A stretch of DNA of 19,382 nt from Promethearchaeota archaeon (GCA_004524535.1 SDNY01000068.1:1-19382), one strand, 5' to 3'. Shown: positions 372 to 19,382, numbered from the stretch's first letter. Numbers and translations: made by a program. The notes: generated from the letters alone by a model not told the origin.

Positions 372-964
372 TGAGAATCCTATTTATCAACAACTATGAT
401 AGTTTTGTTTATAATTTGGTCAATTATATCTGTCAATTACAACCAGACGCTGAAATCATTGTTGAAGACAATAATATTGCAGTGGATAAAGTAAAAGAGA
501 TGAAAGTTGATAAAATAATAATCTCACCCGGACCTGGACATCCTAAATACGACACGGGTACAGTAATACCACTCATCAAGGAATTCTGCTCTAAAATACC
601 AATTCTAGGAATTTGCTTGGGGCATCAAGCTATAATTGAAGCATTCGGCGAAGATAAAAATATTGAATATGTAGGTAGAGCTAAAGTAGGTCCTATGCAC
701 GGTAAGGAATCTAAAGTCTTTCACGACCAAGAAACAATTCTTAAGGATGTCCCTAATCCACTTCAAGTAATTAGATATCACTCACTCTCCGCAAAATCCG
801 ATATTTTGCCCCAAGACCTTAAAATCAGTGCGACTGCGGATGATGGCACAATCATGGGTGTCCGACATAAGCAATTTCCTGTCGAAGGTCTCCAATTCCA
901 TCCCGAGTCGATAAAAATGAAGCCACATGGAATGAAAATTTTAAAAAACTTTTTAGAACTATAA
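371..964 (+). CDS. trpG: Anthranilate synthase component II (class I glutamine amidotransferase), intact
   Basis: Motifs NYDSF, SPGPG, GICLGHQ (catalytic Cys82), RYHSL and QFHPES (His177/Glu179). Translationally coupled to trpE. Confidence 0.92.
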   Translation: MRILFINNYDSFVYNLVNYICQLQPDAEIIVEDNNIAVDKVKEMKVDKIIISPGPGHPKYDTGTVIPLIKEFCSKIPILGICLGHQAIIEAFGEDKNIEYVGRAKVGPMHGKESKVFHDQETILKDVPNPLQVIRYHSLSAKSDILPQDLKISATADDGTIMGVRHKQFPVEGLQFHPESIKMKPHGMKILKNFLEL

Positions 965-972
965 AATAGAAA

Positions 973-1338
973 TCAAATATCGGTGTTAAAAACCCTGTAT
1001 ATTTCTTTCAATAGTGTTTCTTCTTTAACTGGTTTTGTTAAGAATGATTTGGCTCCATTAGCTAACGCTTTTTCTTTTATAGTTAAATCACCAGAAACAA
1101 ATATAATTTTTGCATATTTATCGCATTCTAAAATTTCTTTCATTATTTCAAGACCATTTTTACCTGGCATTCGATGATCTAATAGGATAATATCAGGTTT
1201 TTGCTTAAAGCATTTAAATTTGTTTATAGCTTCTTCTCCGTTAGTGGAAACATCTAGTACTTCTATATTATTAAAATCCATCATTATTTTATAGCCAAAT
1301 ACTAGATCTTGATTATCCTCGATTATGAATATCTTCAT
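973..1338 (-). CDS. Single-domain response regulator (CheY-like receiver)
   Basis: IIEDN acidic pocket, LLDHRMP phosphoacceptor, FVSG and KPV motifs. 121 aa, directly downstream of the kinase. Confidence 0.9.
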   Translation of the reverse strand: MKIFIIEDNQDLVFGYKIMMDFNNIEVLDVSTNGEEAINKFKCFKQKPDIILLDHRMPGKNGLEIMKEILECDKYAKIIFVSGDLTIKEKALANGAKSFLTKPVKEETLLKEIYRVFNTDI

Positions 1339-1342
1339 TATG

Positions 1343-4300
1343 CTATTCTTCTTCTCTTAATAACACTATTACATTTAATCCTTTAGAAAAATCGTTTTTA
1401 ATTCGATCTTTAATAAAAATCTTTCCATTTATACTTTCAATTATTTTTTTTACAATATATAATCCCATTCCCAAACCTTCTTCACTTAATTTTATTTTCC
1501 TTTCAAAAATTAATTTCTTTAAATCATCTGGTATTCCTGGACCATTATCAACTAACTCAATTTTAATATATTTTACGTTCTGAATTTCCTCCTTGGAGAC
1601 TCTAATATCAAGTTGAATGGATTCTTGATCAGTATGTTTGATTGAATTAATAAGAATATTTTCAATCGCATTATATATTAAATCATTAGCATATCCCTCC
1701 AACACTTGATTATTATAATCAATATTAAAATCGATTTTCTTATGAGGAAATGAATTTCTTATAGATTCAATACTCTTATTAATTAAATTGGATACGAGGT
1801 AAGGATAAATTTTACCTTCGATTTGATCAATTTGGGATAGTAATATAATGTTTTTTACTAAATTTTGTCCTTTTTTAAGTTGATTTAAAATAATATCATT
1901 CAATTCTATTAATTCATCATACCTTTCAGGATTTTTTGGTATTCTTTTAAGAAGTTCACTAGAAGTTAGTATAACTTGTAGAATATTATTTATATCATGA
2001 ACAAAAATATCTTGATAAAGTTCAGCCTTGTTATAGGCATTTCTATACATCTCTCTTGATTTGATTAATTTATCATTAGCTAATTTTTTTTCTGTTATAT
2101 CTTCAATGGATATTAGTATCATTGAACCTTCTTTTCTTATTAATTCTTTAGCATTCAAAAGTATAGTTCTTTGACCAATCTTTTCAAAATTATGAGTTAC
2201 TTCAAAATCAGTAATAATTGAGTGAGTTTTAATAATTTTATCAAATAGTTCACGTAAGTTGGGGATGGACCATTGTCTATTTCCTAAATCATAAACATAA
2301 TTATTTTCTGTTTCTTTTTTATCAACTTGAAATAACTGACAAAATGCTGAATTCACTTTAATCACCTTTAACTCGTTATCTAACACTAGTAATGGAGTTC
2401 TGGTAGTCTCCACGATATTTTCAGCAAATTGCATAGTTTCTAACTTTTCTTCCTCTGCTTTCATTCTATCAGTAATATTAAAAAATGTAAGAACTACTCC
2501 ACTAATAACGTTGTTAATCGTTCTATATGGAATTATACGCATGTTATACCATTGGTCCTCTTTTGTTCGAAGATCTTTTTCTATTGTAATTAATTTCTTA
2601 AGAACTGTTTCAGCATCTTGAATTAAATAATCATATTGGAGATTTGATGAAATATGTTCTATAGGGCGTCCAATATCAGTTTCTATGATGTTAAATATTT
2701 CTTTTATATTTGGAGAAAAACGTTGGATTATAAAATTTTCGTCTAGGAAGAGAGTAGCAATCTCGGTACTTGAAATGAAATTGGATAAATCTGAATTTAC
2801 TTCAGACAATTCCGTTATTTTAATTTCAAGCTCTGAATTAACTGTAGTTAATTCCTCGTTTAAAGACTGAAGTTCTTCTTTAGAGGTCTGTAACTCTTCG
2901 TTTGTACTCTGTAATTCTTCATTAGATGATTGCAATTCTTCATTTGCGGATTTTAATTCTTCATTAGTTGTCTCAAGTTCTTCAATCGTGGTTTGAAGGT
3001 ATTGTTTCGTCGAGAGCAATTCATCTTCTAATTCTTTAATTCTGGCATCTTTATTCGTTTCATTTGAATCATTTACAACCGTTCCTTCTTCAGTTGTTAA
3101 ATCGGGAGTTACTTCTATAAATGATATTACGATTAAACCTTTTAACGAGGTGGGTTGAGTAATTGGCGATAAGGTTAAATTAAATCTAATAATTTTTCTA
3201 TTCAAATTAATTGATAAATTCTCTAATATTATTGGAATCTCAGATTTAGTTGCTTTTCTTAAACCTGAAACTAAGTGTACTTTTAAATTTTCCTTTGACA
3301 TATCAGATATGTTCATTTTTGCCTCTCCCTCTGGTAATTCAAGATAAGAGCCGACTTTTCCATGGATATATAAGATATCTCCTTTTTCATTTACAATTAT
3401 TGAAGGGGGAGTGTATGTCTTTAGTAAGAACTCCTCCATCAGAGCCCCATAATTCGTTATAGCCGCATTTTTAAGAGAGTTTTGTCTTTCAGTTTTAAAT
3501 TTATAGTCAGTTAAAGGGGGAAATGGTCTTGGTATGCCTAAAAGTAAAGGAGCAATTTTATTGCGTTGATAAATTTTCCACCTTCTGTTAATTTCAAGGA
3601 ATAATTGAGGAGAACTACTCACTGTTTCTGAACTCCCTAAAAACAAAAAACCATCCGAATTAAGAGAATAATGGAATAATGTTAACAATTTTTTTTGGAT
3701 ATCTGCGTTAAGATAAATCAATAGATTTCTACAAACAATTAAATCTACGTTAGAAAAAGGAGGATCTGTAATTATATCTTGCGCAGCAAAAACTATTTTT
3801 TCTCTTATGATTGGTTTTATTTTAAATTTATTTCCTTCTAATCTAAAAAATTTACTTAGACGTTCAGATGAGACATCAACAGCAATATTATCTGGATATA
3901 TACCATTGCGTGCCTTTTCTATTGCTGTATCATCGATATCAGTCGCAAAAATTTGTATTTTACAATTGATATGACTCCTGTCCAAGTATTCTTGAAATAA
4001 AATTGCTATTGAATATGGTTCCTCTCCTGTGGAGCATCCAGGAATCCAAATCCTAATTGTTTTATTTGGGGTACAATCCTTAAAAAGTTCGGGAATAACT
4101 TTTGTTCGTAAAATATCATATGCCTCTTTATCCCGAAAAAAATTTGTTACGCCAATTAATAATTCTTTAAAGAGTATCTCAATTTCGATTAGATTATCAC
4201 GAAGATAATTAGCATATTCATGAATGCTATTCATATGATTAATAACCATTCTTCTCTCTATACGTCTGTTCATGGTATTTTCTTTATAACAAGAAAAATC

Positions 4301-4969
4301 ATGATTCATAGTACTATTCAATATTTGAAATATTTTAGAAACAGAATCTTGAACTTCTATATCTTTATTATCATCTTTTTCTTTCAAAAAATTTAATTCA
4401 TGTTGAATATATTTTATCAAAACCTCGGGGATCTCATTAGCTGGAAATACATAATCCACAACAGCATTATTTATAACGCTTTTTGGCATACCATCATATT
4501 TCGCTGATTTTGGATCTTGAGCTATAGCTATTCCTCCGAAACCTTTAATCTCTCTAATACCAAGAGTACCATCTGTCCCAGTTCCCGAAAGAACAATTCC
4601 AATTGCCTTATCTTTTTTTTCTAAAGCTAATGATCTAAAAAAGAAGTCAATTGGTAATCTTAATCCCCTAGGGGCACTAGGTTTTTTAAGATGGAAAACT
4701 CCATCTATTATTTCCATATTAAAATTGGGAGGAATAATATAGGCTTGGTTAGGTAATATCCTCATTCCTTCACTAACTTCTTGAACATTCATGCGTGTAT
4801 ATCGCTTTATCAATTCAGCTAAAGAACTTTTATGATGTGGATCTAAATGGGGTATTAAAACAAATGCCATACCTGTATCTGAGGGCATATTTGAGAAAAA
4901 ATGCTCAAAAGCTTCTAGTCCTCCTGCTGAAGCTCCTATTCCTATAATGGGGAAATCAATTTCTGTCAA
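1343..4969 (-). CDS. CheB methylesterase-CheR methyltransferase-coiled coil-PAS-histidine kinase fusion
   Basis: CheB motifs: GASAGG, IPHLDP, LSGTGTDG. CheR motifs: GVTNFFRD, GCSTGEEPYS, ATDID, CRNLLIY. EELxxxN heptads followed by PAS-like segments. HisKA HDINNILQ; HATPase ENILINSIKH, DNGPGIP, GLGMGL. The TTG start is preceded closely by an in-frame stop, so the exact start is slightly uncertain. Confidence 0.9.
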   Translation of the reverse strand: MTEIDFPIIGIGASAGGLEAFEHFFSNMPSDTGMAFVLIPHLDPHHKSSLAELIKRYTRMNVQEVSEGMRILPNQAYIIPPNFNMEIIDGVFHLKKPSAPRGLRLPIDFFFRSLALEKKDKAIGIVLSGTGTDGTLGIREIKGFGGIAIAQDPKSAKYDGMPKSVINNAVVDYVFPANEIPEVLIKYIQHELNFLKEKDDNKDIEVQDSVSKIFQILNSTMNHDFSCYKENTMNRRIERRMVINHMNSIHEYANYLRDNLIEIEILFKELLIGVTNFFRDKEAYDILRTKVIPELFKDCTPNKTIRIWIPGCSTGEEPYSIAILFQEYLDRSHINCKIQIFATDIDDTAIEKARNGIYPDNIAVDVSSERLSKFFRLEGNKFKIKPIIREKIVFAAQDIITDPPFSNVDLIVCRNLLIYLNADIQKKLLTLFHYSLNSDGFLFLGSSETVSSSPQLFLEINRRWKIYQRNKIAPLLLGIPRPFPPLTDYKFKTERQNSLKNAAITNYGALMEEFLLKTYTPPSIIVNEKGDILYIHGKVGSYLELPEGEAKMNISDMSKENLKVHLVSGLRKATKSEIPIILENLSINLNRKIIRFNLTLSPITQPTSLKGLIVISFIEVTPDLTTEEGTVVNDSNETNKDARIKELEDELLSTKQYLQTTIEELETTNEELKSANEELQSSNEELQSTNEELQTSKEELQSLNEELTTVNSELEIKITELSEVNSDLSNFISSTEIATLFLDENFIIQRFSPNIKEIFNIIETDIGRPIEHISSNLQYDYLIQDAETVLKKLITIEKDLRTKEDQWYNMRIIPYRTINNVISGVVLTFFNITDRMKAEEEKLETMQFAENIVETTRTPLLVLDNELKVIKVNSAFCQLFQVDKKETENNYVYDLGNRQWSIPNLRELFDKIIKTHSIITDFEVTHNFEKIGQRTILLNAKELIRKEGSMILISIEDITEKKLANDKLIKSREMYRNAYNKAELYQDIFVHDINNILQVILTSSELLKRIPKNPERYDELIELNDIILNQLKKGQNLVKNIILLSQIDQIEGKIYPYLVSNLINKSIESIRNSFPHKKIDFNIDYNNQVLEGYANDLIYNAIENILINSIKHTDQESIQLDIRVSKEEIQNVKYIKIELVDNGPGIPDDLKKLIFERKIKLSEEGLGMGLYIVKKIIESINGKIFIKDRIKNDFSKGLNVIVLLREEE
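2828..2983 (-). repeat. Coding 21-bp/7-aa heptad repeat (coiled coil) inside the CheBR kinase
   Basis: EELETTN-EELKSAN-EELQSSN-EELQSTN-EELQTSK-EELQSLN-EELTTVN-SEL, typical of CheB/CheR fusion proteins. Confidence 0.85.
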
Positions 4970-5195
4970 GGTATCTTCTATGATGATTCAATCACTTTTA
5001 AAGATAGTGATATTTTATGAATTATATTATAACCCTCTAGTTATCTTAGTTATATATTTGTTATTACAATAAATTATAATCTTTAAACATCACTAAATTG
5101 AGCATGTTTCGTGAGCATGTAACTGATAAGTATATGCATCATAAAATATTGGTTTTGTTAGAGGTTATGAAGATAATAATATATTTTATATGCTT

Positions 5196-5581
5196 AGGAA
5201 TTTTATTCAAAAATACCAATATTTGGAATTAGTTTAGGTCATTAAGCAATTGCCGAAACCTTTGGCGAAGATGAGATTATGGAATACGTGGGCAGAGCTA
5301 AAGTAGGTCCAATGCACGGCAAGGAATCTAAAGTCTTTCACGACCATGAAACGATTCTTAAAGGCGTCCCTAATCCCCTACAAGTAATTAGATATCATTC
5401 ACTCTCCGCAAAATCTGATATTCTACCACAAGACCTTAAAATCAGTGCTACTGCAGATGATGGGACGATCATGGGGGTTCGGCATAAAGAATATCTAGTA
5501 GAAGGATTACAATTTCACCCCGAATCCATCAGAATGAAGCCACATGGAATGCAGATATTAAAGAATTTCTTGAGTTTATAA
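5196..5581 (+). pseudogene. trpG: trpG 3' duplicate, long copy (codons ~70-197); cassette-bounding direct repeat R1
   Basis: Colinear without indels with 579-964. The catalytic Cys codon is AGT (Ser, 5231-5233) and there is an in-frame TAA at 5243-5245. The rest matches trpG to the stop codon. Confidence 0.92.
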
Positions 5582-5620
5582 AGTTAGTAAAACAAAAGAT
5601 TTTTGATTATTCTATAGAGT

Positions 5621-6022
5621 TTACATTTCAAGAGAAATATTTGGGAAATTATCCTCTCGATATCCTGTATCAGGCCAAACATCTACGTTATCATCAAAAT
5701 ATCGAGGAACTAAATGCAAATGAAAATGAAAGACGGATTGTTGAGCCACTTCTCCACTTGCATGGAGAATATTCACTCCGTCAGCATTGAATCTTGATTT
5801 CAATTTTTGAGAGATAAACTTAGTAGTTTTTACTATGTTAAATAATTCATTTTCAGGGATATCATAGATGTTCTCATAATGCTTTTTTGGAGCGATAATT
5901 AAATGTCTTTTTGATATAATCGTATTTGGATTAGGAGCAAAGGCAATAGTATGTTTATTTTCAAATACTTTTAGACTTTTCTCTGATCCATTAATAATCT
6001 TACAAAATATACAATCCTTCAT
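5621..6022 (-). CDS. HIT (histidine triad) family nucleotide hydrolase
   Basis: N-terminal DCIFCKII zinc motif, AQQSVFHFHLHLVPR with the HxHxH triad. Confidence 0.92.
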   Translation of the reverse strand: MKDCIFCKIINGSEKSLKVFENKHTIAFAPNPNTIISKRHLIIAPKKHYENIYDIPENELFNIVKTTKFISQKLKSRFNADGVNILHASGEVAQQSVFHFHLHLVPRYFDDNVDVWPDTGYREDNFPNISLEM

Positions 6023-6118
6023 ACTGAGATTCTCTTTTTATATTCTTAATAAATAAATCTTAATCTTGGTAAATAAATATTTAAGGTTAAATAACTAGTT
6101 TTATAATAGTGACTGATT

Positions 6119-6337
6119 ATGAGTAAAATTACTAAGAAGGAATTACACGATCTTATTGAAAGAATGCCAAACAATTTTACTTTAGAGGATTTGCAGTATC
6201 GTCTGTTTGTTCTTCAAAAATTAGAAAGAGCTGAAAACCAATTTAAGCAAGGTTGTAAAACTACTAATCTCGATGAGATGAGAGAATTAGTAAAAAGTTG
6301 GCGTAGCGAGAAAGAGCAAAATATGGAAACTTACTAA
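6119..6337 (+). CDS. Putative antitoxin of a RelE/ParE pair
   Basis: Small gene upstream of the toxin. K..L..LI..MP..FTLEDLQY.L pattern shared with 7893-8078, 9211-9411 and 19287-19382. Confidence 0.75.
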   Translation: MSKITKKELHDLIERMPNNFTLEDLQYRLFVLQKLERAENQFKQGCKTTNLDEMRELVKSWRSEKEQNMETY

Positions 6338-6355
6338 TATAAATTTTCTTGGAAA

Positions 6356-6640
6356 ATGGTTGATATCAAATTCCATCCTATCGCAAGAGAAGATATTAAA
6401 GAACTATATGACTACTTCTCACGTTATTCTTTAGAATATGCTGATTCTTTTGTCAATAGTCTCTATAATCGTATTGAGGACTTAAAGAGATTCCCAGAAT
6501 TAGGAAAGAAATATCCAGAAAATGAGGATTACCGCCAATTAATCTACCAGAATTATAGAATCCTCTATAAGTATAATAAAGAAGAGGAAAAAGTCATCGT
6601 AATGATTGTCGTGCACTGTTCAAGACAATTGAGAATCTAA
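6356..6640 (+). CDS. Type II toxin, RelE/ParE family
   Basis: 94 aa: MV.I.F...A..D...I..Y, L..FPELG, YRQLIYQNYRILY, VH.SR. Confidence 0.85.
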   Translation: MVDIKFHPIAREDIKELYDYFSRYSLEYADSFVNSLYNRIEDLKRFPELGKKYPENEDYRQLIYQNYRILYKYNKEEEKVIVMIVVHCSRQLRI

Positions 6641-6643
6641 TCT

Positions 6644-6708
6644 ATCCCGAATCCATAAAAATGAAACCCTATGGGATGCAAATTTTAAAAAATTTTTTAG
6701 AACTCTAA
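6644..6708 (+). repeat. trpG 3'-end direct repeat R2 (short)
   Basis: ATCCCGAATCCATAAAAATGAAACCCTATGGGATGCAAATTTTAAAAAATTTTTTAGAACTCTAA translates to PESIKMKPYGMQILKNFLEL* and matches 900-964. Confidence 0.92.
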
Positions 6709-6861
6709 GTTCACAGTCATTAATTAATTGAAAGTCAATAAATATATATGATTAAATAACTATTCTCTTATTAGTAATTGAGTATGAGTAATATTTTCAA
6801 GCAATGATTACACATTCTCATTAAAATAATAAAAAATGATTATACATAGGAGTAAAAATTT

Positions 6862-7104
6862 ATGATCGATATTGATAAATTAATTGCTATCAATCCAGAA
6901 GTATGTTTTGGCAAACCTCATATTAAAGGGACCCGAATTAAGGTAAGTTTTATTTTAGAATTGGTCTCTTCTGGCTGGACTATTGAACAGATTCTACAAG
7001 AATATGATCATTTATCTCGGGATCAAGTAATTGCTTGTTTAATTTATGCTGGACATATTGTAGACAAATATAATGGAAAAATGGAAATCACTAATGAAGT
7101 GTAA
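6862..7104 (+). CDS. DUF433-family antitoxin (VapB45-like)
   Basis: I.INPEVCFGKPHIKGTRIKV..IL....G.TIEQILQEY..L....V.ACL.YA is the DUF433 signature. AGGAG upstream. Confidence 0.88.
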   Translation: MIDIDKLIAINPEVCFGKPHIKGTRIKVSFILELVSSGWTIEQILQEYDHLSRDQVIACLIYAGHIVDKYNGKMEITNEV

Positions 7105-7450
7105 ATTCTTTTGTGATGAGAATATTACAAAGAAATTGCATAATACCATAAAAAACTACGGGTTTCAAGTCGATTCAGTAAGAAATCGAAAAATTTTTGG
7201 GATTAGGAATGGAGATCTTATTGCACTTCTTAACTCTGAGAATTTTATTTTAATAACCTTTGATAAGGATTTTTTAGAACAGAAGTATACAGTAAGACAA
7301 GGCATCATTATTATAGACGTCAATCCAAATCGGGACGAATTTACGATTCCTCTATTTGAAAGATTCTTAGATTTGCTTAAAAAAGATAAAATAGATTGTA
7401 CAAATAAAAAAATTGTGTTAAACCAAGAGTTCTTATCAAATTTCGATTGA
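7094..7450 (+). CDS. DUF5615/Mut7-C-like PIN-domain toxin (VapC45-like)
   Basis: KFFCDENI N-terminal motif, ILITFDKDF, GIIII. Start placed at ATG 7094, overlapping the DUF433 end. Confidence 0.8.
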   Translation: MKCKFFCDENITKKLHNTIKNYGFQVDSVRNRKIFGIRNGDLIALLNSENFILITFDKDFLEQKYTVRQGIIIIDVNPNRDEFTIPLFERFLDLLKKDKIDCTNKKIVLNQEFLSNFD

Positions 7451-7497
7451 TTAAAAAAAAATATAATTTTAGAATATATTTATCATATTTTTTTATA

Positions 7498-7574
7498 GTC
7501 TTCAATTTCACCCCGAATCCATCAAAATGAAGCCCTATGGGATGCAAATTTTAAAAAATTTTTTGGAATTAAAA
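7498..7574 (+). repeat. trpG 3'-end direct repeat R3 (short)
   Basis: Translates to LQFHPESIKMKPYGMQILKNFLEL and matches 888-964. The stop position reads AAA, with TAA two codons later. Confidence 0.92.
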
Positions 7575-10562: not shown

Positions 10563-13175
10563 GTGGTTAATAAAATGGTAACTGAACTTAAACTTAGAGA
10601 AGATATTAAAATTCATCCTAAGAATGATAGAATCCAGCGTTTAAGAGAAAAGTATCAGACAGACATTCCAAAGATATCAATCCAACGAGCTAAATATTAC
10701 ACGGATAAATGGTTTGAAACGGAAAATAGTAACTTGTCTCTTAATGAACGCGTGGCATTATCCATGTTGCATGTATATGAAAACATGACGCATTATGTAA
10801 ATAGCGAGGATAAAATTGCTGGATATTGGACGGAATCCTTTCTGGGCGTTCCTATAGATATTGAGCGTGGTGTTTTTAATAACGTATATAAAAATGAACT
10901 CAAGAAAGGGCGAATGTTCAAGTTGAGAGTAAAATCTCTTAGTAAGACATTGGGGTTCCTCATCAGAAAACGTCAGTTGGGAAATTTTCGTCATAATATT
11001 AAAATAGTCAAGTCAATGGGCAAACAACCAACGGATCTGAGTATTACAACTATGGATAAGAGAGAAATAAATCCCTATACCATCGATAAAGAGGATCTAG
11101 AGATATTACTCAAAGATTTACTGCCAAAATGGAAGGGAAAAAGCATTATCGATATATTAGATAAAGAAATGCAGAGCTCAAACTTAATTAAGGACAGTGT
11201 GCTCGATTTCTTTTCGGCAGTACCTGCTGTCACGTCAAGACAACTTATCTTTATGTCTCTTTGTTCTAACCTTGCCACATTTCAGGGACATTTAATCCTT
11301 GATTATGAGAAGGTACTTAAAGAGGGCTTGCTCAAAATGAAGGATGACATCGAAAAAACAAAAGTTAATACCAATACTAAAGAAGAATTAGATTTTCTCA
11401 ATTCAATTTCAATTGCGGTTGATGGAATAATTGCCTATTGCAAGCGATTGAAGGAAAAGCTTGAGAACCAAATTTCTATAGAAAAAAACGCTGAGTTAAA
11501 AGAAAATCTTAAAGAAATCTTAAACATCTGCAAAAAAGTTCCGCTCCATCCTGCAAAAAGTTTTAGAGAAGCGGTTCAATCAGCTTGGACGCTTAAAGTT
11601 GCTGTAGAATTAGCTCATCCCATAAATTTAAATTGTTTTGGTCGAGTGGACCAAATATTTTATCCATATTATAAAAGAGATAAGGAGAAAGGAATTATTA
11701 GTGAAGCTGAAGCAGTGGAAATCTTTGAGGAATTACTTTTAAAATTGATGTCACTGAATATAAGGCCAGAATCAAATACGATTGCCAATTTTTACCATCG
11801 ATATCTAGGATCTACGCCAATAACTTTAGGAGGGGTCAAACCAGATGGAACTGATAGCACCAATGATCTTACATATTTATTTATTGATGCCGCAAATGGA
11901 TCAAGAGCAGTCTCGAATATTTCTGTGCGAGTTAATGAGAAAACTCCTGATGATTTGCTTTTAAAAATCGCTGAAGCATTGAATGAAGGAAGTGCAAATA
12001 TTTCAATCTACAATGACGAAGTGAACATTGAAGCCATGAAACGACGCGGTTTTAGCGAAGAAGATGCTAGAGATTATGCTATAATAGGATGCGTAGAACT
12101 TAATTGTCCGGGTAAAACAGGAGCTATGAGTGGAAATGCATTATTGTTATGTCGCTTGCTTGATATGACTCTTAGAAATGGGGATACTCAAACTTTATTT
12201 GGAATGTTAAGGGAAGCTGGGATTAAAACTGGAGATCCTAATAAATTTGAAACTTTTGAAGATTTTATGGATGCTTTCTACCAGCAAGCTAAGGACCAAA
12301 TTGAATTAATCGTTAAAGGTTCTAATTTTCGTGATGAAATTTATGCCAAGAACCAGCCCGCACCATATATATCTGCATTCATGGATGGATGCTTGCAAAA
12401 TAAAAGAGATGTTACTGAAGGAGGAGCCAAATATGACTTATCTGCTATTGGAGTCACCAATAGCATCGCGAATCTGATTGACTCCTTGTATGCTATAAAG
12501 AAGATCATCTTTGAAGATAAGTTTACCACCTTCGATGAATTATTAGATGCTTTGGATAATAATTTTGTTGGTTATGAAGATTTGCATAATCGTATAATGG
12601 AAATAGAAGGTTTTTGGGGAAACGGTAATGCGGAAGTTGATGAATTTGCTCATTCCATTTCAAAAACATTATTTGAAGAGATCTACAAACATAAGAACTA
12701 CCGAGGAGGGCCCTTTATCCCTATTCTACTTAGCATGACCACGCATACCATAGACGGCAGAATCTCTATCGCAACGCCAGATGGAAGATTAGCATCTTCA
12801 CCCTATGCGCCTAGTTGTTCTCCTTATAATGTGGAAAAGAACGGGGTGACTGGCGTTTTTCGCTCTATAGCATCTTTAGACTTTGAGAATTCATTAGGAA
12901 GTGCTGTAAACGTGAAATTCCATCCTTCAGCATTAGGTTCTGAGTTAGAAACAAGAAAGAAATGGGTATCTTTGGTAAAAACATATTTTCAGTTAGGGGG
13001 GCCGCAAGTTCAACCTACCGTGGCTTCGGCTGAAATGCTTATAGACGCACAAAAACATCCAGAAAATTATAAAGATTTAATTGTTAAAGTCGGAGGATAT
13101 AGTGCATTTTTTACGGAATTAGGTATCGAAATTCAGAATGAAGTCATTTCAAGGACCGAACATTTGAGCTGTTAA
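10563..13175 (+). CDS. Glycyl radical enzyme (PFL2/dehydratase-lyase type; substrate unknown)
   Basis: Cys loop YAIIGCVE (single Cys), GRVDQ, ATPDGR, and C-terminal AQKHPENYKDLIVKVGGYSAFF glycyl loop. Start may be GTG 10563 or ATG 10575. Confidence 0.92.
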   Translation: MVNKMVTELKLREDIKIHPKNDRIQRLREKYQTDIPKISIQRAKYYTDKWFETENSNLSLNERVALSMLHVYENMTHYVNSEDKIAGYWTESFLGVPIDIERGVFNNVYKNELKKGRMFKLRVKSLSKTLGFLIRKRQLGNFRHNIKIVKSMGKQPTDLSITTMDKREINPYTIDKEDLEILLKDLLPKWKGKSIIDILDKEMQSSNLIKDSVLDFFSAVPAVTSRQLIFMSLCSNLATFQGHLILDYEKVLKEGLLKMKDDIEKTKVNTNTKEELDFLNSISIAVDGIIAYCKRLKEKLENQISIEKNAELKENLKEILNICKKVPLHPAKSFREAVQSAWTLKVAVELAHPINLNCFGRVDQIFYPYYKRDKEKGIISEAEAVEIFEELLLKLMSLNIRPESNTIANFYHRYLGSTPITLGGVKPDGTDSTNDLTYLFIDAANGSRAVSNISVRVNEKTPDDLLLKIAEALNEGSANISIYNDEVNIEAMKRRGFSEEDARDYAIIGCVELNCPGKTGAMSGNALLLCRLLDMTLRNGDTQTLFGMLREAGIKTGDPNKFETFEDFMDAFYQQAKDQIELIVKGSNFRDEIYAKNQPAPYISAFMDGCLQNKRDVTEGGAKYDLSAIGVTNSIANLIDSLYAIKKIIFEDKFTTFDELLDALDNNFVGYEDLHNRIMEIEGFWGNGNAEVDEFAHSISKTLFEEIYKHKNYRGGPFIPILLSMTTHTIDGRISIATPDGRLASSPYAPSCSPYNVEKNGVTGVFRSIASLDFENSLGSAVNVKFHPSALGSELETRKKWVSLVKTYFQLGGPQVQPTVASAEMLIDAQKHPENYKDLIVKVGGYSAFFTELGIEIQNEVISRTEHLSC

Positions 13176-13196
13176 TTATATTAAATTAAACCACCC

Positions 13197-14105
13197 ATGA
13201 AAGGAATAATCTTCGACATCCATCAATTTGCAATATATGATGGACCAGGCATCCGCACAGTTATTTTTTTGAAGGGGTGTCCATTGTCATGCATTTGGTG
13301 CCATAATCCTGAATCACAAGATCCGGATCCTCAAATCTCATATTTTCAAGAAAAATGCATGAGATGTGGAAAATGCGTGGATTCTTGTCCCAATAAAGCA
13401 CTCACCTTGACATCTGAAGGGATTAAGAGAGATGTTAAAAACTGCAATCTTTGTGGTAACTGCATTAAAGCTTGCCCTAATAAAGTGATGGAAATAGTAG
13501 GCAAGGAATATTCGGTTGAGCAGGCGATCAAGATTGTTGCTGCAGATAAGCCTTTTTACGACAATTCTGGAGGGGGTGTGACTATTTCGGGTGGGGAACC
13601 CACGATGCAATATCCCTTTTTGGTTTCACTACTAAATAATTTAAAGCTTAAAGGCATTCAATCGGCTATTGAAACTTGCGGGTTCTTCAATGAAAAACAA
13701 CTTGATGAACTCCTGGAATTAGTGGATCTTTTTCTATTTGATATCAAACATGTTGATCCTGAAATTCATGAAAAGTTTACCAGTGTAAGAAACGATAAAA
13801 TAAAGAAAAACTTTAAGAAAATCGTAGAGAAAACAGAATCAAAGAAAATAATATGTCGTATCCCCATTATTCCAAATTTTAACAAGGATTTAGAGGTAAT
13901 TAAAGGAATCGCTGAATTTTTGAATAAAGTAAACTATTCCAATGACATCCATTTAATGCCTTATAATAAACTATCTAAAACAAAGTATGAGAAAGTAGGC
14001 ATGGGAAATTTATATAAGGATATGGGAGAACTTAGCGAGAAAGAATTACAAGAAATTAGCAATATTTTTGAAAATCAAGGGTTTAAGGTCTTAATAAATC
14101 AATAA
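13197..14105 (+). CDS. Glycyl-radical enzyme activating enzyme (radical SAM with 2x[4Fe-4S] ferredoxin insert)
   Basis: DGPGIRT..FLKGCPLSCIWCHNPES, CMRCGKCVDSCP, CNLCGNCIKACP, GGGVTISGGEP. Confidence 0.95.
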   Translation: MKGIIFDIHQFAIYDGPGIRTVIFLKGCPLSCIWCHNPESQDPDPQISYFQEKCMRCGKCVDSCPNKALTLTSEGIKRDVKNCNLCGNCIKACPNKVMEIVGKEYSVEQAIKIVAADKPFYDNSGGGVTISGGEPTMQYPFLVSLLNNLKLKGIQSAIETCGFFNEKQLDELLELVDLFLFDIKHVDPEIHEKFTSVRNDKIKKNFKKIVEKTESKKIICRIPIIPNFNKDLEVIKGIAEFLNKVNYSNDIHLMPYNKLSKTKYEKVGMGNLYKDMGELSEKELQEISNIFENQGFKVLINQ

Positions 14106-14154
14106 CCAGTATATGTAAAAAAAATAAAAACAATACAAAAAAGGAGATAAAATT

Positions 14155-15660
14155 ATGGTACATGTTCCAGGATTTTTAGTAAATAGGATATATGAAAAGG
14201 GAAGTTTACAAAATACCGAAGATGGTTTTATGCTTTCATTAAAAAATAGGATAATGTCTATAAAAACATATGGGATAAGTGCATTAAAAGTTACTTTAGA
14301 TGGAGAAATCTCAATTCCACAGGAGGATATTGAACTTGAACTCGATGGACGTATTTTTAAGGTCTCAAATGAACCTCAAAAGGAACTATTAGAATTCTCT
14401 AAAAATTCAAGACTTATATCTCGGGCAAAGGGGCATCATCTCTCAGAGGGGAAACATGTATTAAAAATAAGTTTTGTAACTCATGAATATGGAGGGGTTT
14501 CTCTTAAGATTCAAGATAACGTAGGAGAGGAAGAATATTTAACATTATGGAAGAGAATCAAGAAGCGTATTAAGAAAAAGAAGAAAAAGGTTGCTGCTAA
14601 ACCAATTATTATTGAAGGCGAGCTTGGTGGTATCCCTTTAGATCCAGATTTTTCGAGATTAGAGAAGGTTCTAAGACGAGAAATACCAGATAGAGTCCCA
14701 TTATTTGAATTTGATGTTGAAATTCCTATCAAGGAAGCATTTTTAGGGCGTGAAATTACGACTGCAGAAGATGATGTAGAATTCTATATTCGGGCAGGTT
14801 ACGATTTTGTACCCGTCATTCCACCCTTTTTTACACCAAGATCAATGTCTCAGGCTGAGGGTGAAGAAAGAAGTTGGGTAACAGAAAGCAAAGGGATTAT
14901 TAAAACTATGGAAGATTTTAAGAATTTCCCATGGCCAGATCCTGATAATGTGGACTTTTCGGGATTTTACGAAATTGCAGAGCTCTTACCACCTAAAATG
15001 AGAATTTTAGGATTACTCTCCCCAGCAGCTGTGTTTGGAAATACATCCCAATCGATGGGATTGACCAATTTCTCTTATGCCCTATTTGATAATATTGAAT
15101 TAGTTGAAGCCCTTTTCGAGAAGATCGGTTCTTCTTATTTAAGAATCGCTGAGCGACTTGTAAAGGTGCCGAAGCTAGGAGCGGTATTAATGTCAGATGA
15201 TTTAGCTCATACTGGAGGTTTATTAGTTAATCCAAAAATATACAGGAAGTATGTTTTTCCATGGTATGCTAAATTCGGGGCCATCCTTAAAAAAGCAGAT
15301 ATTCCCTTTCTTTTCCACTCTGATGGGAACTTTATGCCTGTCTTTAACGATTTATACGACTGTGGAATCAGAGGCATCCACCCTATTGAACCCCAAGCAA
15401 TGGATATTGTAAATGTAAAGCAAGAATATGGTGATAAATTCTGTATTTTCGGTAATATCGACCTTGAATACACATTAACTCGAGGAACTGTGGAGGAAGT
15501 GGTAACTCTAGTCAAAAAGAGGCTAAAAGAACTCGCTCCGGGGGGAGGTTATGGACTATCAGCTTCAAATTCCATTCCAGATTACGTTAAGCCTGAAAAT
15601 TTTAGGGCGATGGTTGAAACTGTTAAAAAATATGGTAAGTATCCAATTAATATTGAGTAA
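14155..15660 (+). CDS. Uroporphyrinogen decarboxylase/MtaA-CmuA methyltransferase family protein with extra ~125-aa N-terminal domain
   Basis: PDRVP, FPWPDP, SDDLA, FHSDGN, IHPIEP, FGNID and GGGYGLSASNSI motifs. Adjacent to a corrinoid protein. AAGGAG ribosome-binding-like sequence upstream. Confidence 0.8.
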   Translation: MVHVPGFLVNRIYEKGSLQNTEDGFMLSLKNRIMSIKTYGISALKVTLDGEISIPQEDIELELDGRIFKVSNEPQKELLEFSKNSRLISRAKGHHLSEGKHVLKISFVTHEYGGVSLKIQDNVGEEEYLTLWKRIKKRIKKKKKKVAAKPIIIEGELGGIPLDPDFSRLEKVLRREIPDRVPLFEFDVEIPIKEAFLGREITTAEDDVEFYIRAGYDFVPVIPPFFTPRSMSQAEGEERSWVTESKGIIKTMEDFKNFPWPDPDNVDFSGFYEIAELLPPKMRILGLLSPAAVFGNTSQSMGLTNFSYALFDNIELVEALFEKIGSSYLRIAERLVKVPKLGAVLMSDDLAHTGGLLVNPKIYRKYVFPWYAKFGAILKKADIPFLFHSDGNFMPVFNDLYDCGIRGIHPIEPQAMDIVNVKQEYGDKFCIFGNIDLEYTLTRGTVEEVVTLVKKRLKELAPGGGYGLSASNSIPDYVKPENFRAMVETVKKYGKYPINIE

Positions 15661-15676
15661 AAAGAGGTTAAAAAAA

Positions 15677-16300
15677 ATGGAAGAATTAAAAAAATTAGTA
15701 ATTGATGGTGATAATGTTGAAGCAGTTGATAGAATTCAAAAACTCTTAGCTGAGGGGAATGACCCAAATGATATAGTAAATAATGCTTTAATCCCTGCTA
15801 TGGATAAGGTAGGTGAATTATTCCAAAATAAGGAATATTTCATTCCAGATTTGCTAATTGCAGCAAGAGCAATGGAGGAAGGAATGGCATTTTTAAAACC
15901 ACTACTTGTTAAAGATGAGAGCTCAAAATCGCTAGGTAAGATCGTCCTTGGAACAGTTAAAGGAGATCTACACGATATTGGGAAAGCTTTGGTAGGGATT
16001 ATATTGAAAAGTGCTGGATTTGAAGTGATAGATATTGGTATTGATGTCCCTGCTGAAGAATTTATAGAGGCGATCAAGAAGCATAATCCAATTGCCTTAG
16101 GTATGTGTGCACTTCTGACAATTACAATGATTGAAATGGAAGTAGTAATTAAAGCGATAAAAGAGGCAGGATTACGAGATAACTTGAGAATATTAGTTGG
16201 GGGTGCTCCGGTAAATGATGACTATGCAAAAGAGATAGGAGCAGATTTTTACGGTCCAGACCCAACCTCAGCTAAGAATTATTTATTAGGGATAATATAA
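15677..16300 (+). CDS. Corrinoid (cobalamin-binding) protein, MtaC/MtbC-like
   Basis: Cap domain LIPAMDKVGELF..EYFIPDLL, GTVKGDLHDIGK (DxHxxG), VGGAP, IGAD. Start placed at ATG 15677 after GAGGT, not at 15551. Confidence 0.92.
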   Translation: MEELKKLVIDGDNVEAVDRIQKLLAEGNDPNDIVNNALIPAMDKVGELFQNKEYFIPDLLIAARAMEEGMAFLKPLLVKDESSKSLGKIVLGTVKGDLHDIGKALVGIILKSAGFEVIDIGIDVPAEEFIEAIKKHNPIALGMCALLTITMIEMEVVIKAIKEAGLRDNLRILVGGAPVNDDYAKEIGADFYGPDPTSAKNYLLGII

Positions 16301-16371
16301 CTAATAATAAAAAATAAATAAATATAGAATGTAAATAAAAAATAAACAAAAGAAAAAAAAGGGTTAATAAA

Positions 16372-17736
16372 ATGGAAGAGAAAAATATTAATAAGGAACA
16401 TCTTTTTTTAAAAGCCAGAATGCTTTCTGAGGGTGTAGATCTTACCAGTTCAAAGGAATTATCACCTGAGCTTTATAGGGCTTGGTCTTTAGATAAAAGT
16501 GGAAAACAAAAAGAGGTAGAGCTACCTAAGAAGCTTGACCTTGATAATCCAATGGCTCTCCTTTCTTTATTTGGAGAAATGAAAAAAGATGATACGACTG
16601 TCAATTTTAGACCAGAAATACGGTTTGATAGTACTGGACTTCGTGCACAAATACACCCAAATAAACGCTCCAGATTAGAACTTCTTATCGAAGGGGATAC
16701 TGCAAGTGTTATAGAAAAGGGAAAAACGTTAATAACAGGTAAGTTCCCAAAAAGACTTGAATGGTTAGACCAAAAGTTAGGAGGGGGAATCAACGCGACT
16801 GTTGGGGGTTTATTACCTGCAATGTCAGCTCAAGTCATTAATGTAGTGATTAGTCTATCTTGCTTTAATTATAATACGGGGCGGGGTTGTCGCTTTTGTA
16901 ATCTATTTTCAAACCCAATATCTCGGAAAATTTCTATATTGCCTATGACAATACTGAAATTATGGGCGATGGGGCAAGGAAGAGCAGTTAAAATAGCCGT
17001 TGATAATGGATGGAACGGAAGTTTTGCTCTAAGTGGTGGAGCATTAGCACCTGCCCAAAGAGGAGAGTATTTAGAGCGGCTTGAGGTGGTATTAACAACA
17101 TTGAAGAAAGCTCTGGGTGATGAGAAATTTAACCAAATACCTAAACTTTATAATCATTATCCGCCCGAAGATTTTGCAGACATGCATAAATGGAAAGAAA
17201 TGGGCATTACATCTGTTGGTATTGATTTGGAAGTAATGGATGATGCCTATTATGCTGCCATATGTCCAGGAAAAGCTGCATATAAACCTCTTTCCTATGT
17301 GAGAAAAGCTCAAGAATATTCGGTAAAGGTTTTTGGACCGCTTTTTGGCACAACAGGTTTATTAGTCATGGGTATAGAGCCTATGTCCACATTAGTGGCT
17401 GGTTATGAAGAAAGAATGTCAAAAGGAATATTGCCTATGCCTGTAGTATTTCACCCCGAACCTAATTCTGCCTATGAAGGTTTTCGTCCTCCCACCGCAG
17501 AATGGATTGTAGAGGCCTCTGATAAGATGGCTGACTCCTTTATGAAACATTTTATCAAGTGGCTCCCTGCAGCAATCGAACATGCAGAAAAATGGGATGG
17601 CTCCTTCGATTTGGAAACTGGTTTCGCTCATACGTTTAATTCACTTTCACATCAAACTATTTTATTTGATGAGATCAAGTTGCGACTCGATAAACTGCTC
17701 GATGGCCGACCTTTTTCGGCACTTATAGAGGGATAA
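16372..17736 (+). CDS. Radical SAM protein with non-canonical CX8CX2C motif
   Basis: CFNYNTGRGCRFC at 16861-16899; LSGG, IDLEV, ICPGK, VMGIEP, FHPEP. Confidence 0.75.
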   Translation: MEEKNINKEHLFLKARMLSEGVDLTSSKELSPELYRAWSLDKSGKQKEVELPKKLDLDNPMALLSLFGEMKKDDTTVNFRPEIRFDSTGLRAQIHPNKRSRLELLIEGDTASVIEKGKTLITGKFPKRLEWLDQKLGGGINATVGGLLPAMSAQVINVVISLSCFNYNTGRGCRFCNLFSNPISRKISILPMTILKLWAMGQGRAVKIAVDNGWNGSFALSGGALAPAQRGEYLERLEVVLTTLKKALGDEKFNQIPKLYNHYPPEDFADMHKWKEMGITSVGIDLEVMDDAYYAAICPGKAAYKPLSYVRKAQEYSVKVFGPLFGTTGLLVMGIEPMSTLVAGYEERMSKGILPMPVVFHPEPNSAYEGFRPPTAEWIVEASDKMADSFMKHFIKWLPAAIEHAEKWDGSFDLETGFAHTFNSLSHQTILFDEIKLRLDKLLDGRPFSALIEG

Positions 17737-17798
17737 GAAAAGTAAATAATCAATCAATCTTAGTTCTATTTTAATTTTATAATTTTTACCTAATCATT

Positions 17799-18575
17799 AT
17801 GGAAATATTTATTTTAATTTTGATAGTTCTTGCTTTTGCTACAATTGTAGCTGCAACATTAGGATTTGGAGATAGCTTAATCTTTATAGCAATCACGGCT
17901 CTATTTATTAACATACTATTAGCTATAGTTTTAATCTCATTTTGGTCGTTTTGGATATCAGTTTTTAATGCAATAAAATACAGAGAATATATAGACAAGG
18001 TTTTTGTGAAAAAAAATGTTCCACCAGGAATAATTGGTGCCATACTGGGATCTTTGCTAATAACTATAGCCCCTTTAAAGTGGATCGAATTATTTCTGGG
18101 TTGTTTCATATTAATATATACGATATTTAAATCTTTAGAGATAAAAAAAGAAAACAGATTGAAATCTGAAACTAATAGCGAGGTTGAGCGTAATTTTAAA
18201 GATATTTCTGATCCAATTTTTTATCTAGGATCATTTTCTTATGGTTTTTTTGGGGGATTAATTGGAGCATCAGGACCAATTAATGTAATTTTATTGGAAA
18301 GAAAAGGGCATCAGAAAGAAAGTTTTATTGTAAATTTTGCAATATGTAGTGTAATTATTAGCAGCTTTAAACTTGGGATATATTTAGGAAGTGGTTTATT
18401 TCCTGTTGCTTTCCTCGCTGTATATCTCGCTGGATTTGTTGTTATTGTATTATCAATGAAGTTAGGGCATGCAATAACACCAAAAATTTCCAAGGAAAAA
18501 TTTCAATTTTCTATTTTAATGCTATTATTAATTATTGGGATTAGAATGATTGTTAATTCACTCTTTTATTATTAA
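17799..18575 (+). CDS. TauE/SafE (sulfite exporter-like) family membrane protein
   Basis: About 8 hydrophobic segments in two halves, with ATLGFGDSLI and GFFGGLIGASGP motifs. Confidence 0.8.
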   Translation: MEIFILILIVLAFATIVAATLGFGDSLIFIAITALFINILLAIVLISFWSFWISVFNAIKYREYIDKVFVKKNVPPGIIGAILGSLLITIAPLKWIELFLGCFILIYTIFKSLEIKKENRLKSETNSEVERNFKDISDPIFYLGSFSYGFFGGLIGASGPINVILLERKGHQKESFIVNFAICSVIISSFKLGIYLGSGLFPVAFLAVYLAGFVVIVLSMKLGHAITPKISKEKFQFSILMLLLIIGIRMIVNSLFYY

Positions 18576-18589
18576 ATAAGAATCTTTTT

Positions 18590-18622
18590 CTTATCCTGTT
18601 TAGACACTTTTAGATGGATAAG
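18590..18622 (+). terminator. Possible hairpin after the TauE gene
   Basis: CTTATCC (18590-18596) and GGATAAG (18616-18622) form an inverted repeat that extends with G-U pairs. Function not established. Confidence 0.25.
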
Positions 18623-18744
18623 GAGGGTTACCAATATTTATTAAGGAATATTTTAGACCAGTATCAATAGGATAAAAGGGATCCTAATTTTGTTTATTCT
18701 GGGAATAATAAATATGGAAAAAGACCAACACTTCTTAGATAGCT

Positions 18745-19131
18745 AAAGAATTTTACTCTAAAATGCCAATATTAGGAATTTGTCTATGTCATCAAGCAAT
18801 TGTCGAAGCTTTTGGCGAGGATGAAAGTATGGAATATGTGGGCAAAGCTAAAATAGGTCCTATGCATGGAAAGGAATCTAAAGTCTTTCACGACCAAGAA
18901 ACAATTCTAAAGGATATCCCTAATCCACTTCAAGTAATTAGATATCACTCACTTTCCGCAAAATCCGATATTTTACCCCAGGACCTTAAAATCAGTGCGA
19001 CTGCAGATGATGGAACGATCATGGGGGTTAGGCATAAACAATATCCTATAGAAGGGCTCCAATTCCATCCCGAGTCGATAAAAATGAAACCCTATGGGAT
19101 GAAAATATTAAAAAACTTCTTGGAACTATGA
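18745..19131 (+). pseudogene. trpG: trpG 3' duplicate, long copy (codons 70-197); cassette-bounding direct repeat R7
   Basis: Colinear without indels with 578-964 (KEFYSKMPILGICLCHQ...NFLEL*). Lacks the first 69 codons, including the NYDSF and SPGPG motifs; conserved Gly84 is Cys. Confidence 0.92.
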
Positions 19132-19286
19132 ATATCATTTAATAATTTAAAAAGGATAAATGAGATTTACGTTCTCTCACATTAAAAAGGAAAAAAAATT
19201 AGATTTAGAATTTCATTTTACTCAAGATATTAGTTTCTTTTTTATAATAAAAATTTATATAATAGAGTTCGAATTTATATTATAGA

Positions 19287-19382
19287 ATGCAAACTATTAA
19301 AGAAAGATTAAAGAAAATAATTGATGATCAACCTGATGATGCATCTTATGAGGAAATCTTACGAGAAATGCTCTTTGATAAA
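19287..19382 (+). CDS. Putative antitoxin, same family as 7893-8078 (3'-truncated by window edge; not in ORF track)
   Basis: MQTIKERLKKIIDDQPDDASYEEILREMLFDK aligns with MQTIKDRVIESIKKLPDDVNYDDIMESIY. TTTATATA at 19254-19261. Confidence 0.75.
   Translation, partial: MQTIKERLKKIIDDQPDDASYEEILREMLFDK

Follow-up and report, generated by a model that had tools for sequence, protein, structure and literature searches.

A stack of small gene cassettes, each bounded by a copy of the 3′ end of trpG, lies downstream of this gene in a Promethearchaeota archaeon. We attribute it, with a probability of about 60%, to site-specific accretion of cassettes at the end of trpG, in which the cassettes would be mobile units and the enzyme would act in trans. 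The sequence analysed is a stretch of 19,382 nt (GCA_004524535.1, SDNY01000068.1:1-19382; G+C content 32%), hereafter called the window. It is the entire contig C167 of the metagenome-assembled genome (MAG) G000, which comprises 3.66 Mb in 198 contigs with 99% completeness and 4.4% estimated contamination. Labels beginning with G denote genomes (40 related ones, G000 included), L denotes metagenome loci (113), C denotes contigs of this MAG and X1-X4 are sequencing runs.

The window opens with the 3′ end of trpE (anthranilate synthase component I; 3-371, + strand, truncated by the contig start; Pfam Chorismate_bind, E 7e-37), followed by an intact trpG of 197 aa that anchors the array (371-964, +; Pfam GATase, E 1e-53; TIGR00566 trpG_papA, 175 bits against a cut-off of 121). 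This trpG closes a trpD-C-F-B-A ... E-G operon, whose other genes, together with the 5′ part of trpE, are located on contig C52. Repeats were inventoried by a direct repeat search of the window and by BLASTN of trpG against the whole MAG. The 71-nt trpG end shared by the copies, which we call the core, was searched for with a profile (nhmmer), matches being counted at E<1e-3. A sequence-only reading of the window had placed seven trpG-derived repeats on the + strand, and they are present, essentially where it put them. Past the intact gene there are two long copies, four short ones (65-84 nt) and one internal piece. The first long fragment (5196-5581, +; gene nt 209-594, 82% identity) contains two in-frame stops and has its core at 5510-5580; the second (18745-19131, +; gene nt 208-594, 87% identity) has its core at 19060-19130. 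Two predicted open reading frames (ORFs), 5279-5581 and 18763-19131, are mere remnants of these long repeats. The short copies, all on the + strand, hold the cores R2 (6641-6708, E 3e-17), R3 (7498-7581), R5 (9083-9153, E 9e-17) and R6 (9703-9773, E 4e-17). Core R0, the last 71 nt of trpG itself (893-963, +; E 6e-18), would be the resident recombination site. The internal piece (8177-8242, +; 8176-8242 in the repeat search) covers gene nt 442 to ~507 without the terminal core and is probably the leftover of a deletion.

Expressed as repeat units, a 300-nt sequence occurs in three copies (578-877; 5195-5494, 83%; 18745-19044, 86%) and an 84-nt unit in seven (888-971, 5505-5588, 6632-6715, 7498-7581, 9077-9160, 9697-9780 and 19055-19138). 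The profile detected seven cores in the window with E-values of about 9e-17 to 8e-20; BLASTN of trpG against the MAG gave 1e-102 and 1e-132 for the long copies and 2e-6 to 4e-15 for the short ones. These values exclude a chance origin of the repeats. Six of the seven repeats had been said to end at the trpG stop codon: six do reach the end of the gene, but only five keep a stop there (TAA, TAA, TAA, TAG in R6 and TGA in the second long fragment), whereas the copy at 7498-7581 reads AAA at that place and stops four codons further on. The repeats bound modules, as had been proposed, and all are co-oriented.

The core begins in the codons of the conserved QFHPES motif and stops at the trpG stop codon; at least nine short copies start within gene nt 522-525. 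Several lines of evidence place DNA exchange in one ~10-nt part of the core, around GGAAT/GCAAAT (the slash marks the exchange place), which lies ~30 nt upstream of the trpG stop in the context ...ATGGAAT/GCAAAT... and separates two arms of the core, ~40 nt on the left and ~24-30 nt on the right. The region forms an imperfect dyad, GGAAT-GCAA-ATTCT. We compared homologous cassettes standing in different contexts. In five pairs with differing upstream neighbours (window versus G008, L176, L211 and C80; C80 versus L205) the right arm of the upstream core was identical at 109 of 116 positions and the left arm at 166 of 199. In two pairs with differing downstream neighbours, just 27 of 42 positions of the right arm in the downstream core were identical; a further pair, window and L236, whose context on that side is the same, is not part of these sums. 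Furthermore, one long left part (90-93% identity over 160 nt between G008 and three copies in G000) is joined to various right arms and cargo.

Joints between distant positions of the window bear on the exchange place as well. A contig of run X3 joins 9120->9741 (depth 6, side 84, both 5), with R5 as left and R6 as right partner, and thereby lacks exactly the cassette 9154-9702; the crossover falls within a shared 5-nt ATGCA, although three 8-nt identical runs existed elsewhere in both cores. In run X2, the joint 6670->927 (side 255, both 18) falls inside R0, within gene nt 557-575. On C133, a core breaks off at ...GCAAATTT and gives way to sequence from inside trpE; at this place the native trpE reads CCCTATGGCAATTTA, which is core-like. 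Half-cores break at profile positions ~45-48. The X3 and X2 joints, the trpE junction and the half-cores all lie within profile positions ~39-48. Joints with a side <31 (X3 8057->9083 and several in X2) and depth holes (e.g. X1 12294-16175) were not used as evidence, and neither were the X1 joints, which reflect only paralogous copies on C80, C133 and C138. Several long fragments start at GGAAT-type motifs inside trpG (gene nt 208/209, twice; 237; 473), which may be secondary sites.

This clustering bears on the possibility that the host machinery recombines any trpG-end homology and that selection simply keeps the events that spare trpG. Homologous recombination of this kind would account for repeat lengths of ~30 nt to 1.3 kb, for the short homology at the trpE junction, for the repetition of the ends of several other genes in the same MAG and for our finding no site-specific enzyme. 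However, the exchange points all fall within ~10-20 nt of a 71-nt (or 170-390-nt) homology, the X3 crossover used 5 nt of identity rather than one of the 8-nt runs, the copies are only 70-89% identical and thus poor substrates, and the short copies have a common start. We therefore hold this explanation to be distinctly unlikely.

Insertion at trpG had been proposed to regenerate the gene, and its last codons do come from the neighbouring cassette. All right arms keep an open frame, ...(I/L)LKNFLxL, with a stop at or near the homologous position. On C80, the last codons of a 201-aa trpG copy are borne by a cassette: the right arm and the 300 nt after it correspond to window 7498-7881 (95% identity), where R3 precedes the cassette 7582-8176. 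Most differences between trpG and the two long fragments are at third codon positions (54 of 75 and 37 of 52), and synonymous to non-synonymous codon changes stand at 43:18 and 34:13. Because the differences are mostly synonymous, these sequences appear to have diverged as working genes in other lineages and not by decay in place; judged by this pattern, the long repeats are evidently displaced ends of foreign functional trpG alleles.

Beyond the window, the array continues over other contigs. There are 26 cores on seven of the 198 contigs (C167 7, C80 4, C133 4, C138 7, C18 2, C123 1, C27 1), 22 of them on C167, C80, C133 and C138, and two more relics consist of a right arm only (C138:34219-34266 and 23189-23215). 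The ends of C52 and C133rc (rc, reverse complement) share 37 nt with the starts of C167 and C80, and the ends of C167 and C80 share 143 nt with the starts of C133rc and C138rc. The sole path using each contig once runs from C52 to C167 or C80, then to C133rc, to the other of the two and to C138rc; it leaves two orders, with either C167 or C80 following the true trpE on C52. All cores on the inferred path are co-oriented. From trpE-trpG the array would measure ~71 kb to the last full core and ~84 kb to the last relic; more than 20 small cassettes are stacked downstream of trpG, and the locus makes up ~2% of the genome. The array also holds a frameshifted second full-length trpG (C80:7111-7703) and a partial trpE′-trpG′ copy. 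Between a full and a decayed core, C138:34219-36730 carries genes resembling ORFs of G005, which we take to be lysX, lysZ and lysW; with lysine-biosynthesis genes between cores, housekeeping genes sit inside the island. On C52, ~7 kb of mostly unannotated ORFs (32240-39408) separate trpA from trpE, two genes that are adjacent in G005.

Strain variants of one locus, stitched together or collapsed during assembly, are a highly improbable source of this array. The genome does derive from a metagenome with some estimated contamination, and its contigs break at repeats. However, copies within one contig differ by 11-30% and hence are not collapsed duplicates, and an independent assembly of X1, the probable source run, reproduces whole cassettes with their cores without differences (e.g. 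8612-12023). In that assembly, pieces of C167 have depths of ~50-59 and joints matching copies on other contigs ~54-56; such near-equal depths fit one genome with all copies in series better than alternative strains. Arrays were also found in other genomes, including on contigs of 289 kb and 436 kb, and in 24 metagenome loci.

Copy numbers in related genomes were obtained with a 394-nt trpG query. It matches 23 of the 40 genomes, seven of which (G000 included) have at least two copies, and the profile adds a second copy in G013. The closest core-bearing records are titled Promethearchaeota, Promethearchaeia or Hermodarchaeota archaeon, several with two cores per locus, which marks the organism as an Asgard-type archaeon. 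(A loose pattern scan of the genome collection returned 91 stretches, mostly chance bacterial matches, of which the archaeal ones alone are useful.) In G008, which belongs to the same genus, trpG and five to six further copies extend over 23 kb. Its distal cassettes follow the order of C138rc (90-97% identity) apart from gains and losses, and its two trpG-adjacent cassettes are absent from G000. A homologue (95% identical) of the ParE cassette 9154-9702 directly precedes the first C138 cassette in G008, which lacks the 9-kb metabolic cluster and the next ParE cassette between the shared neighbours. The two arrays therefore differ in content next to trpG and share collinear cassettes at a distance, a pattern that fits entry of new units at the gene and displacement of older ones, as the sequence-only reading had supposed. 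In G005, the lysine trio (lysW, lysZ, lysX) precedes a lone core 18 kb after trpG.

The core is present in 107 of the 113 metagenome loci, 145 times in total: 51 cores end a full trpG, 19 long fragments, 58 short fragments, and 17 stand as core only. Among the 51 full trpG genes, 21 encode proteins at least 72% identical to that of the window and 30 only 39-49%, so that the latter 30 come from other organisms. At least two cores occur in 24 of the 113 loci, co-oriented in all 24, at spacings of 432-7224 nt (median ~1 kb; 20 of 38 spacings <=1032 nt). The same small cassettes recur among other neighbours in L176, L211, L236, L196 and L205. In L176, trpG is followed by a 96-aa cassette and then by a HIT and ParE cassette that is 92% identical to cassette 2 of the window, and in L236 a DUF5615-like cassette stands directly before the 88/159-aa cassette. 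Short arrays in L221 and L267 end at lysW-lysZ-lysX, the three genes that follow the last full core in G000. An archaeal trpG-type core (E 1e-18) was also found at 4856-4925 of L086, in a record titled Candidatus Nanopelagicaceae bacterium, a freshwater actinobacterium bin; this contig is probably mis-binned. Cassette content and order thus differ between related genomes and samples, with exchange points inside the core. Identical arrays, repeats unrelated to module boundaries or a mis-assembly, each of which would have told against the sequence-only reading, were not encountered.

This turnover has to be set against a history of decay, in which integrase-bearing plasmids or proviruses were stacked in tandem and then lost their integrases and most other genes, leaving the short cassettes as immobile relics. 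Tandem integration with later loss of the integrase is described for archaeal elements in the accessible part of PMC8371274; some of the present units are large (4-9 kb), broken sites exist (the 8177-8242 piece and the half-cores), and a recombinase is absent. We nevertheless regard such decay as unlikely: units of 0.55-1 kb, their cores intact, are met again beside new neighbours in other genomes and samples, precisely one short unit is missing from the X3 contig, whose joint falls inside the core, more than half of the metagenome core spacings are about 1 kb or shorter, and the arrays examined contain no integrase remnant.

The smallest cassettes measure ~0.55-1 kb, and family scans support the earlier statement that each is a self-contained module without a recombinase; profile, phmmer and Pfam searches agree that none of the cassette ORFs examined is one. 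An enzyme moving them would have to act in trans. In the MAG, PF00589 matches two proteins, both off the array contigs: a Xer-like one on C126 (10722-11672; 139.7 bits, 307 aa), which begins with a SAM-like domain, and, on C144, a divergent one (24.7 bits). The Xer-like gene is present in eight of nine genomes of the genus, the exception being 72% complete, and is the sole tyrosine recombinase gene in G008. None of the PF00589 matches across the genus genomes lies near an array, and the serine recombinase family PF00239 has no match in the 99%-complete MAG. An 880-aa ORF on C80 matches no Pfam family. A helper virus or plasmid was sought with two degenerate core patterns, which had no match in viral contigs, a weak search restricted to exact pattern matches. 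The C144 tyrosine recombinase was considered as the array enzyme and rejected, as it is missing from all eight other genus genomes and occurs in two of 39 relatives; the protein (C144:14805-16490, -; 562 aa, PF00589 23-25 bits, below the cut-off) is 75% identical to one of G020 and probably belongs to a separate mobile element.

A different kind of protein stands beside several trpG ends. An ORF of 230 aa on C80 (1244-1936, -), which closely follows the trpG copy there, represents a family encoded convergently to trpG. In three of 26 close trpG loci (unique, each with at least 1 kb of downstream sequence), homologues lie 78-286 nt after trpG, measured from the tblastn match to the gene end, and others adjoin partial trpG copies in L243 and L242. 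In G023 (L269:2549-5320, -), a 923-aa protein with DUF4379 zinc fingers has the homologue as its C-terminal portion, and the stop of its ORF is 2 nt past that of trpG. In the N-terminal domain of the family D51, G65, H68 and D89 are invariant and E62, Q67 and K92 near-invariant. With a predicted model of the 230-aa protein (pLDDT 93, against 51 for a poorer one), a structure search identified the C-terminal domain as a winged helix (Z 9.1, root-mean-square deviation 3.5 Å, 76 residues aligned). For the N-terminal domain, Foldseek and wide VIA searches with the whole protein as query returned no structural match; a profile search against PDB sequences gave nothing significant, and DUF2726 matched just two homologues, weakly and below threshold. 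The family may be a site-specific nuclease.

If so, an endonuclease could cut in the core and let the break be repaired from core-bearing DNA, in a homing-like manner. The convergent position next to full and partial trpG copies, the fusion to zinc fingers in G023, the conserved D/G/H/D and E/Q/K residues and the winged helix would suit such an enzyme, and the foreign trpG tracts of variable length resemble co-conversion tracts. However, neither the window nor 23 of the 26 loci contain the gene, the zinc-finger part is missing from the copy in this MAG, no array accompanies the gene within the 17 kb examined in G023, and the N-terminal domain yielded only the two weak DUF2726 matches mentioned above. 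Cutting by this family is accordingly an improbable basis of the array.

Site-specific accretion at trpG would work as follows. A unit would comprise its cargo and, as its site, a ~71-nt duplex copy of the trpG end, and units would be inserted, lost and reshuffled by breakage and rejoining at the one fixed place in the core. The right arm (~24-30 nt) lies on the upstream side of a unit, moves together with the cargo that follows it and, next to trpG, supplies the last ~9 codons and the stop; the left arm (~40 nt, in some units extended to as much as 1.3 kb of trpE-trpG sequence) lies on the downstream side. Each insertion at the intact gene, presumably of a circular intermediate, would regenerate trpG and displace older units, the array growing from the trpG end. 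The enzyme would most likely be a tyrosine-type site-specific recombinase, encoded by the host or on an unbinned element.

Several observations weigh against this interpretation. In and around the arrays of G000, G008, G005, G004 and G007 the search, which was of limited sensitivity and may have missed an unbinned helper, revealed no recombinase. None of the 858 ORFs from the 113 metagenome loci matched the Xer-like protein (phmmer), and ten large cassette ORFs gave LRR, ankyrin/TPR, PRTase-CE and AsnC-type helix-turn-helix families in Pfam and no recombinase. The joint data from X1-X4 come from assembled contigs, not raw reads, and the X2 joint 6670->927, although a circle of 965-6643 would produce just this sequence, is equally compatible with a different order of cassettes. 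One prediction failed: the left arm downstream of the ParE cassette is identical at only 31 of 40 positions between window and G008, despite 95% identity of the cargo. G008 and C138 also differ by 3.7 kb at a place where no cores mark the boundaries. G016 and G023 have no second core in the 6-17 kb examined after trpG, which is followed there by toxin-antitoxin-like genes or a putative nuclease gene. Finally, this MAG has arrays on other gene ends (msrA on C18, a gene on C103 and a 5′ end on C123), which would call for several specificities or a homology-based route.

Cargo families in the window were assigned by Pfam and NCBIfam scans of its ORFs. Cassette 1 (965-5195, -) encodes a response regulator (973-1338) and a CheB-CheR-PAS-histidine kinase fusion (1343-4969). 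Cassette 2 (5582-6640, mixed strands) contains a HIT hydrolase (5621-6022, -), a 72-aa ORF (6119-6337) and a ParE-family toxin (6356-6640), and cassette 3 (6709-7497, +) a DUF433 protein (6862-7104) with a DUF5615/PIN_10-like protein (7073-7450). ParE-family toxins are also found in cassette 4 (7582-8176, -; toxin 7621-7905, 64-aa ORF 7893-8087) and cassette 6 (9154-9702, +; 66-aa ORF 9211-9411, toxin 9399-9683), hence in three window cassettes. Between them, cassette 5 (8243-9082, +) carries a pair of 88 and 159 aa that matches no family in Pfam or NCBIfam and has three copies in this MAG and further ones in L236 and L262. Cassette 7 (9774-18744, mixed strands) is a metabolic cluster comprising a 193-aa ORF (-), a PFL-like glycyl-radical enzyme (10563-13175), its activase (13197-14105), a URO-D/MtaA-like protein (14155-15660), a corrinoid (B12-binding) protein (~15677-16300), a variant radical SAM protein (16372-17736) and TauE (17799-18575). 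The next cassette begins at 19132 (19132-19382, +) with an antitoxin-like ORF from 19287, and the final 143 nt of the window recur unchanged at the beginnings of C133rc and C138rc. Cargo is thus on the minus strand in cassettes 1 and 4, on the plus strand in 3, 5 and 6, and on both in 2 and 7.

Within the metabolic cluster, the 501-aa protein at 14155-15660 joins an HMG-CoA-reductase-N-like domain to the URO-D/MtaA-like one. The ORF listed at 15551-16300 overlaps the end of that gene, and 15677 (MEELKK...) is the more likely start of the B12-binding protein. Contigs of X3 and X4 join 9889 to 16238 (side 60; other letters may lie between the joint sides), which points to a form of the cluster that lacks the glycyl-radical enzyme, activase, MtaA-like and corrinoid proteins.

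The repeated ends of msrA and of the genes on C103 and C123 make gene-end repeats a general feature of this genome. On C18 (1400-5334), a 199-nt copy of the msrA 3′ end (2325-2523, 91%) lies 2.3 kb downstream of the intact msrA (4846-5334, -), constituting a second gene-end array. Between the two are a DprA gene (Pfam, E 2e-61) and a 242-aa ORF that resembles ComF and has no Pfam match. Two trpG-type cores on C18 (1404-1466 and 2219-2287) flank a PIN-like toxin-antitoxin cassette that is also part of the trpG array in L242; locus L013 covers C18 720-3788. On C103 (15500-20400), a 144-aa gene (19975-20409, -) has copies of its 3′ end at 18412-18494 and 16012-16211, and the intervals hold toxin-antitoxin and oxidoreductase cassettes. 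C123 (63972-72391) has three repeats (92-95%) of the 5′ end of a gene for an Fe-S protein, with toxin-antitoxin-like and flavoprotein genes between the repeats.

If the proposed mechanism holds, genes flow through Asgard archaea, which of all archaea are nearest to eukaryotes, by a major route that has not been described before. Species differ in the content of this locus, as do sediment samples, and its genes serve toxin-antitoxin systems, defence, signalling and anaerobic metabolism. The minimal mobile unit would be cargo plus only 71 nt. Since the target DNA encodes a conserved enzyme motif, cassettes would have a wide host range and would repair the gene with every insertion. The core with its mapped exchange place is a ready substrate for finding the recombinase; it could also serve as a site-specific integration tool in organisms that do not have genetics yet.

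The array had been called integron-like. This is apt for its function, a co-oriented, core-bounded array with entry at one end, but IntI, a folded attC and co-oriented promoterless cassettes are lacking, and the array is not an integron. With chromosomal (sedentary) integrons it shares long series of small recombinase-less cassettes with one site each, frequent toxin-antitoxin cargo and insertion apparently at one end. Unlike these integrons, it has no adjacent IntI, its cargo lies on both strands in self-contained modules, its site is a duplex copy of coding sequence without an attC hairpin, and the equivalent of attI is the end of a housekeeping gene that needs regeneration. Folded as single-stranded DNA, the seven + strand cores and the complementary trpG core reached -2.4 to -5.8 kcal/mol, with z-scores of -1.28 to +0.82 against shuffles and no stable attC-like structure.

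Elements residing at gene ends are also close. SCC elements integrate at rlmH, and cis-mobilisable elements stand beside integrative and conjugative elements at fda. SGI1 is presented in the available parts of PMC8409611 and PMC2297512 as an integrative mobilisable island at the 3′ end of trmE. As in these systems, the 3′ end of a conserved gene serves as target and repeat, tandem arrays arise, and units without a recombinase would be moved in trans. Target-derived direct repeats flank the units, trpG is intact and the exchange point is fixed, as expected of integrative elements at gene 3′ ends. The known elements differ in that their repeats are short and one unit or more encodes an integrase of the tyrosine or large serine type; the trpG array has a ~71-nt site, more than 20 units and no integrase, in a unit or a helper, among the arrays searched in this MAG and its relatives, and the large serine recombinase (ccr) of SCC has no counterpart among PF00239 matches in the MAG. 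Another possible parallel is IMEX, elements that exploit the host Xer recombinase at dif. They, too, lack a recombinase of their own and accumulate in tandem, and they depend on an enzyme of the host, as the trpG cassettes may do; a Xer-like gene is the one tyrosine recombinase gene shared across the genus (eight of nine genomes). The site here is the trpG end and not dif, with no 11-6-11 dyad by inspection. A Xer/dif system exists in archaea, according to the accessible part of PMC2958812.

Tycheposons of Prochlorococcus, as far as the available text of the preprint goes (bioRxiv 10.1101/2020.12.28.424599), integrate successively, push older elements inward, leave partial target copies and carry adaptive cargo. 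Successive integration at one site, scattered partial copies of the target and adaptive cargo link them to the trpG array, and together with the tandem, integrase-losing archaeal elements of PMC8371274 they come closest to it in concept. The differences are that tycheposons use tRNA or tmRNA targets and integrases, while here a protein gene is the target, units are as small as 0.55 kb and no integrase is seen. The array had also been considered an undescribed system. Consistent with this, the literature found on Asgard mobile elements and gene-end islands describes no trpG-end array, and none is mentioned in the portions available of PMC11529989, 10.64898/2026.08.12.739948 and PMC8813620, whose supplements, outside that scope, might list such islands; analogues at other gene ends are known, however, and these make the system less unprecedented than first thought. 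A bolder interpretation, to which we give somewhat less than even odds, is an independently built, integron-like gene-capture platform in Asgard archaea, in which the ~71-nt duplex, copied from the part of trpG that encodes the catalytic motif, would be chromosomal entry point and cassette site alike, the recombinase would be host-encoded or of an unrecognised kind not linked to the array, and cassettes would circulate between lineages. Accretion at gene 3′ ends is already known; what is new is its minimal, recombinase-less units in Asgard archaea.

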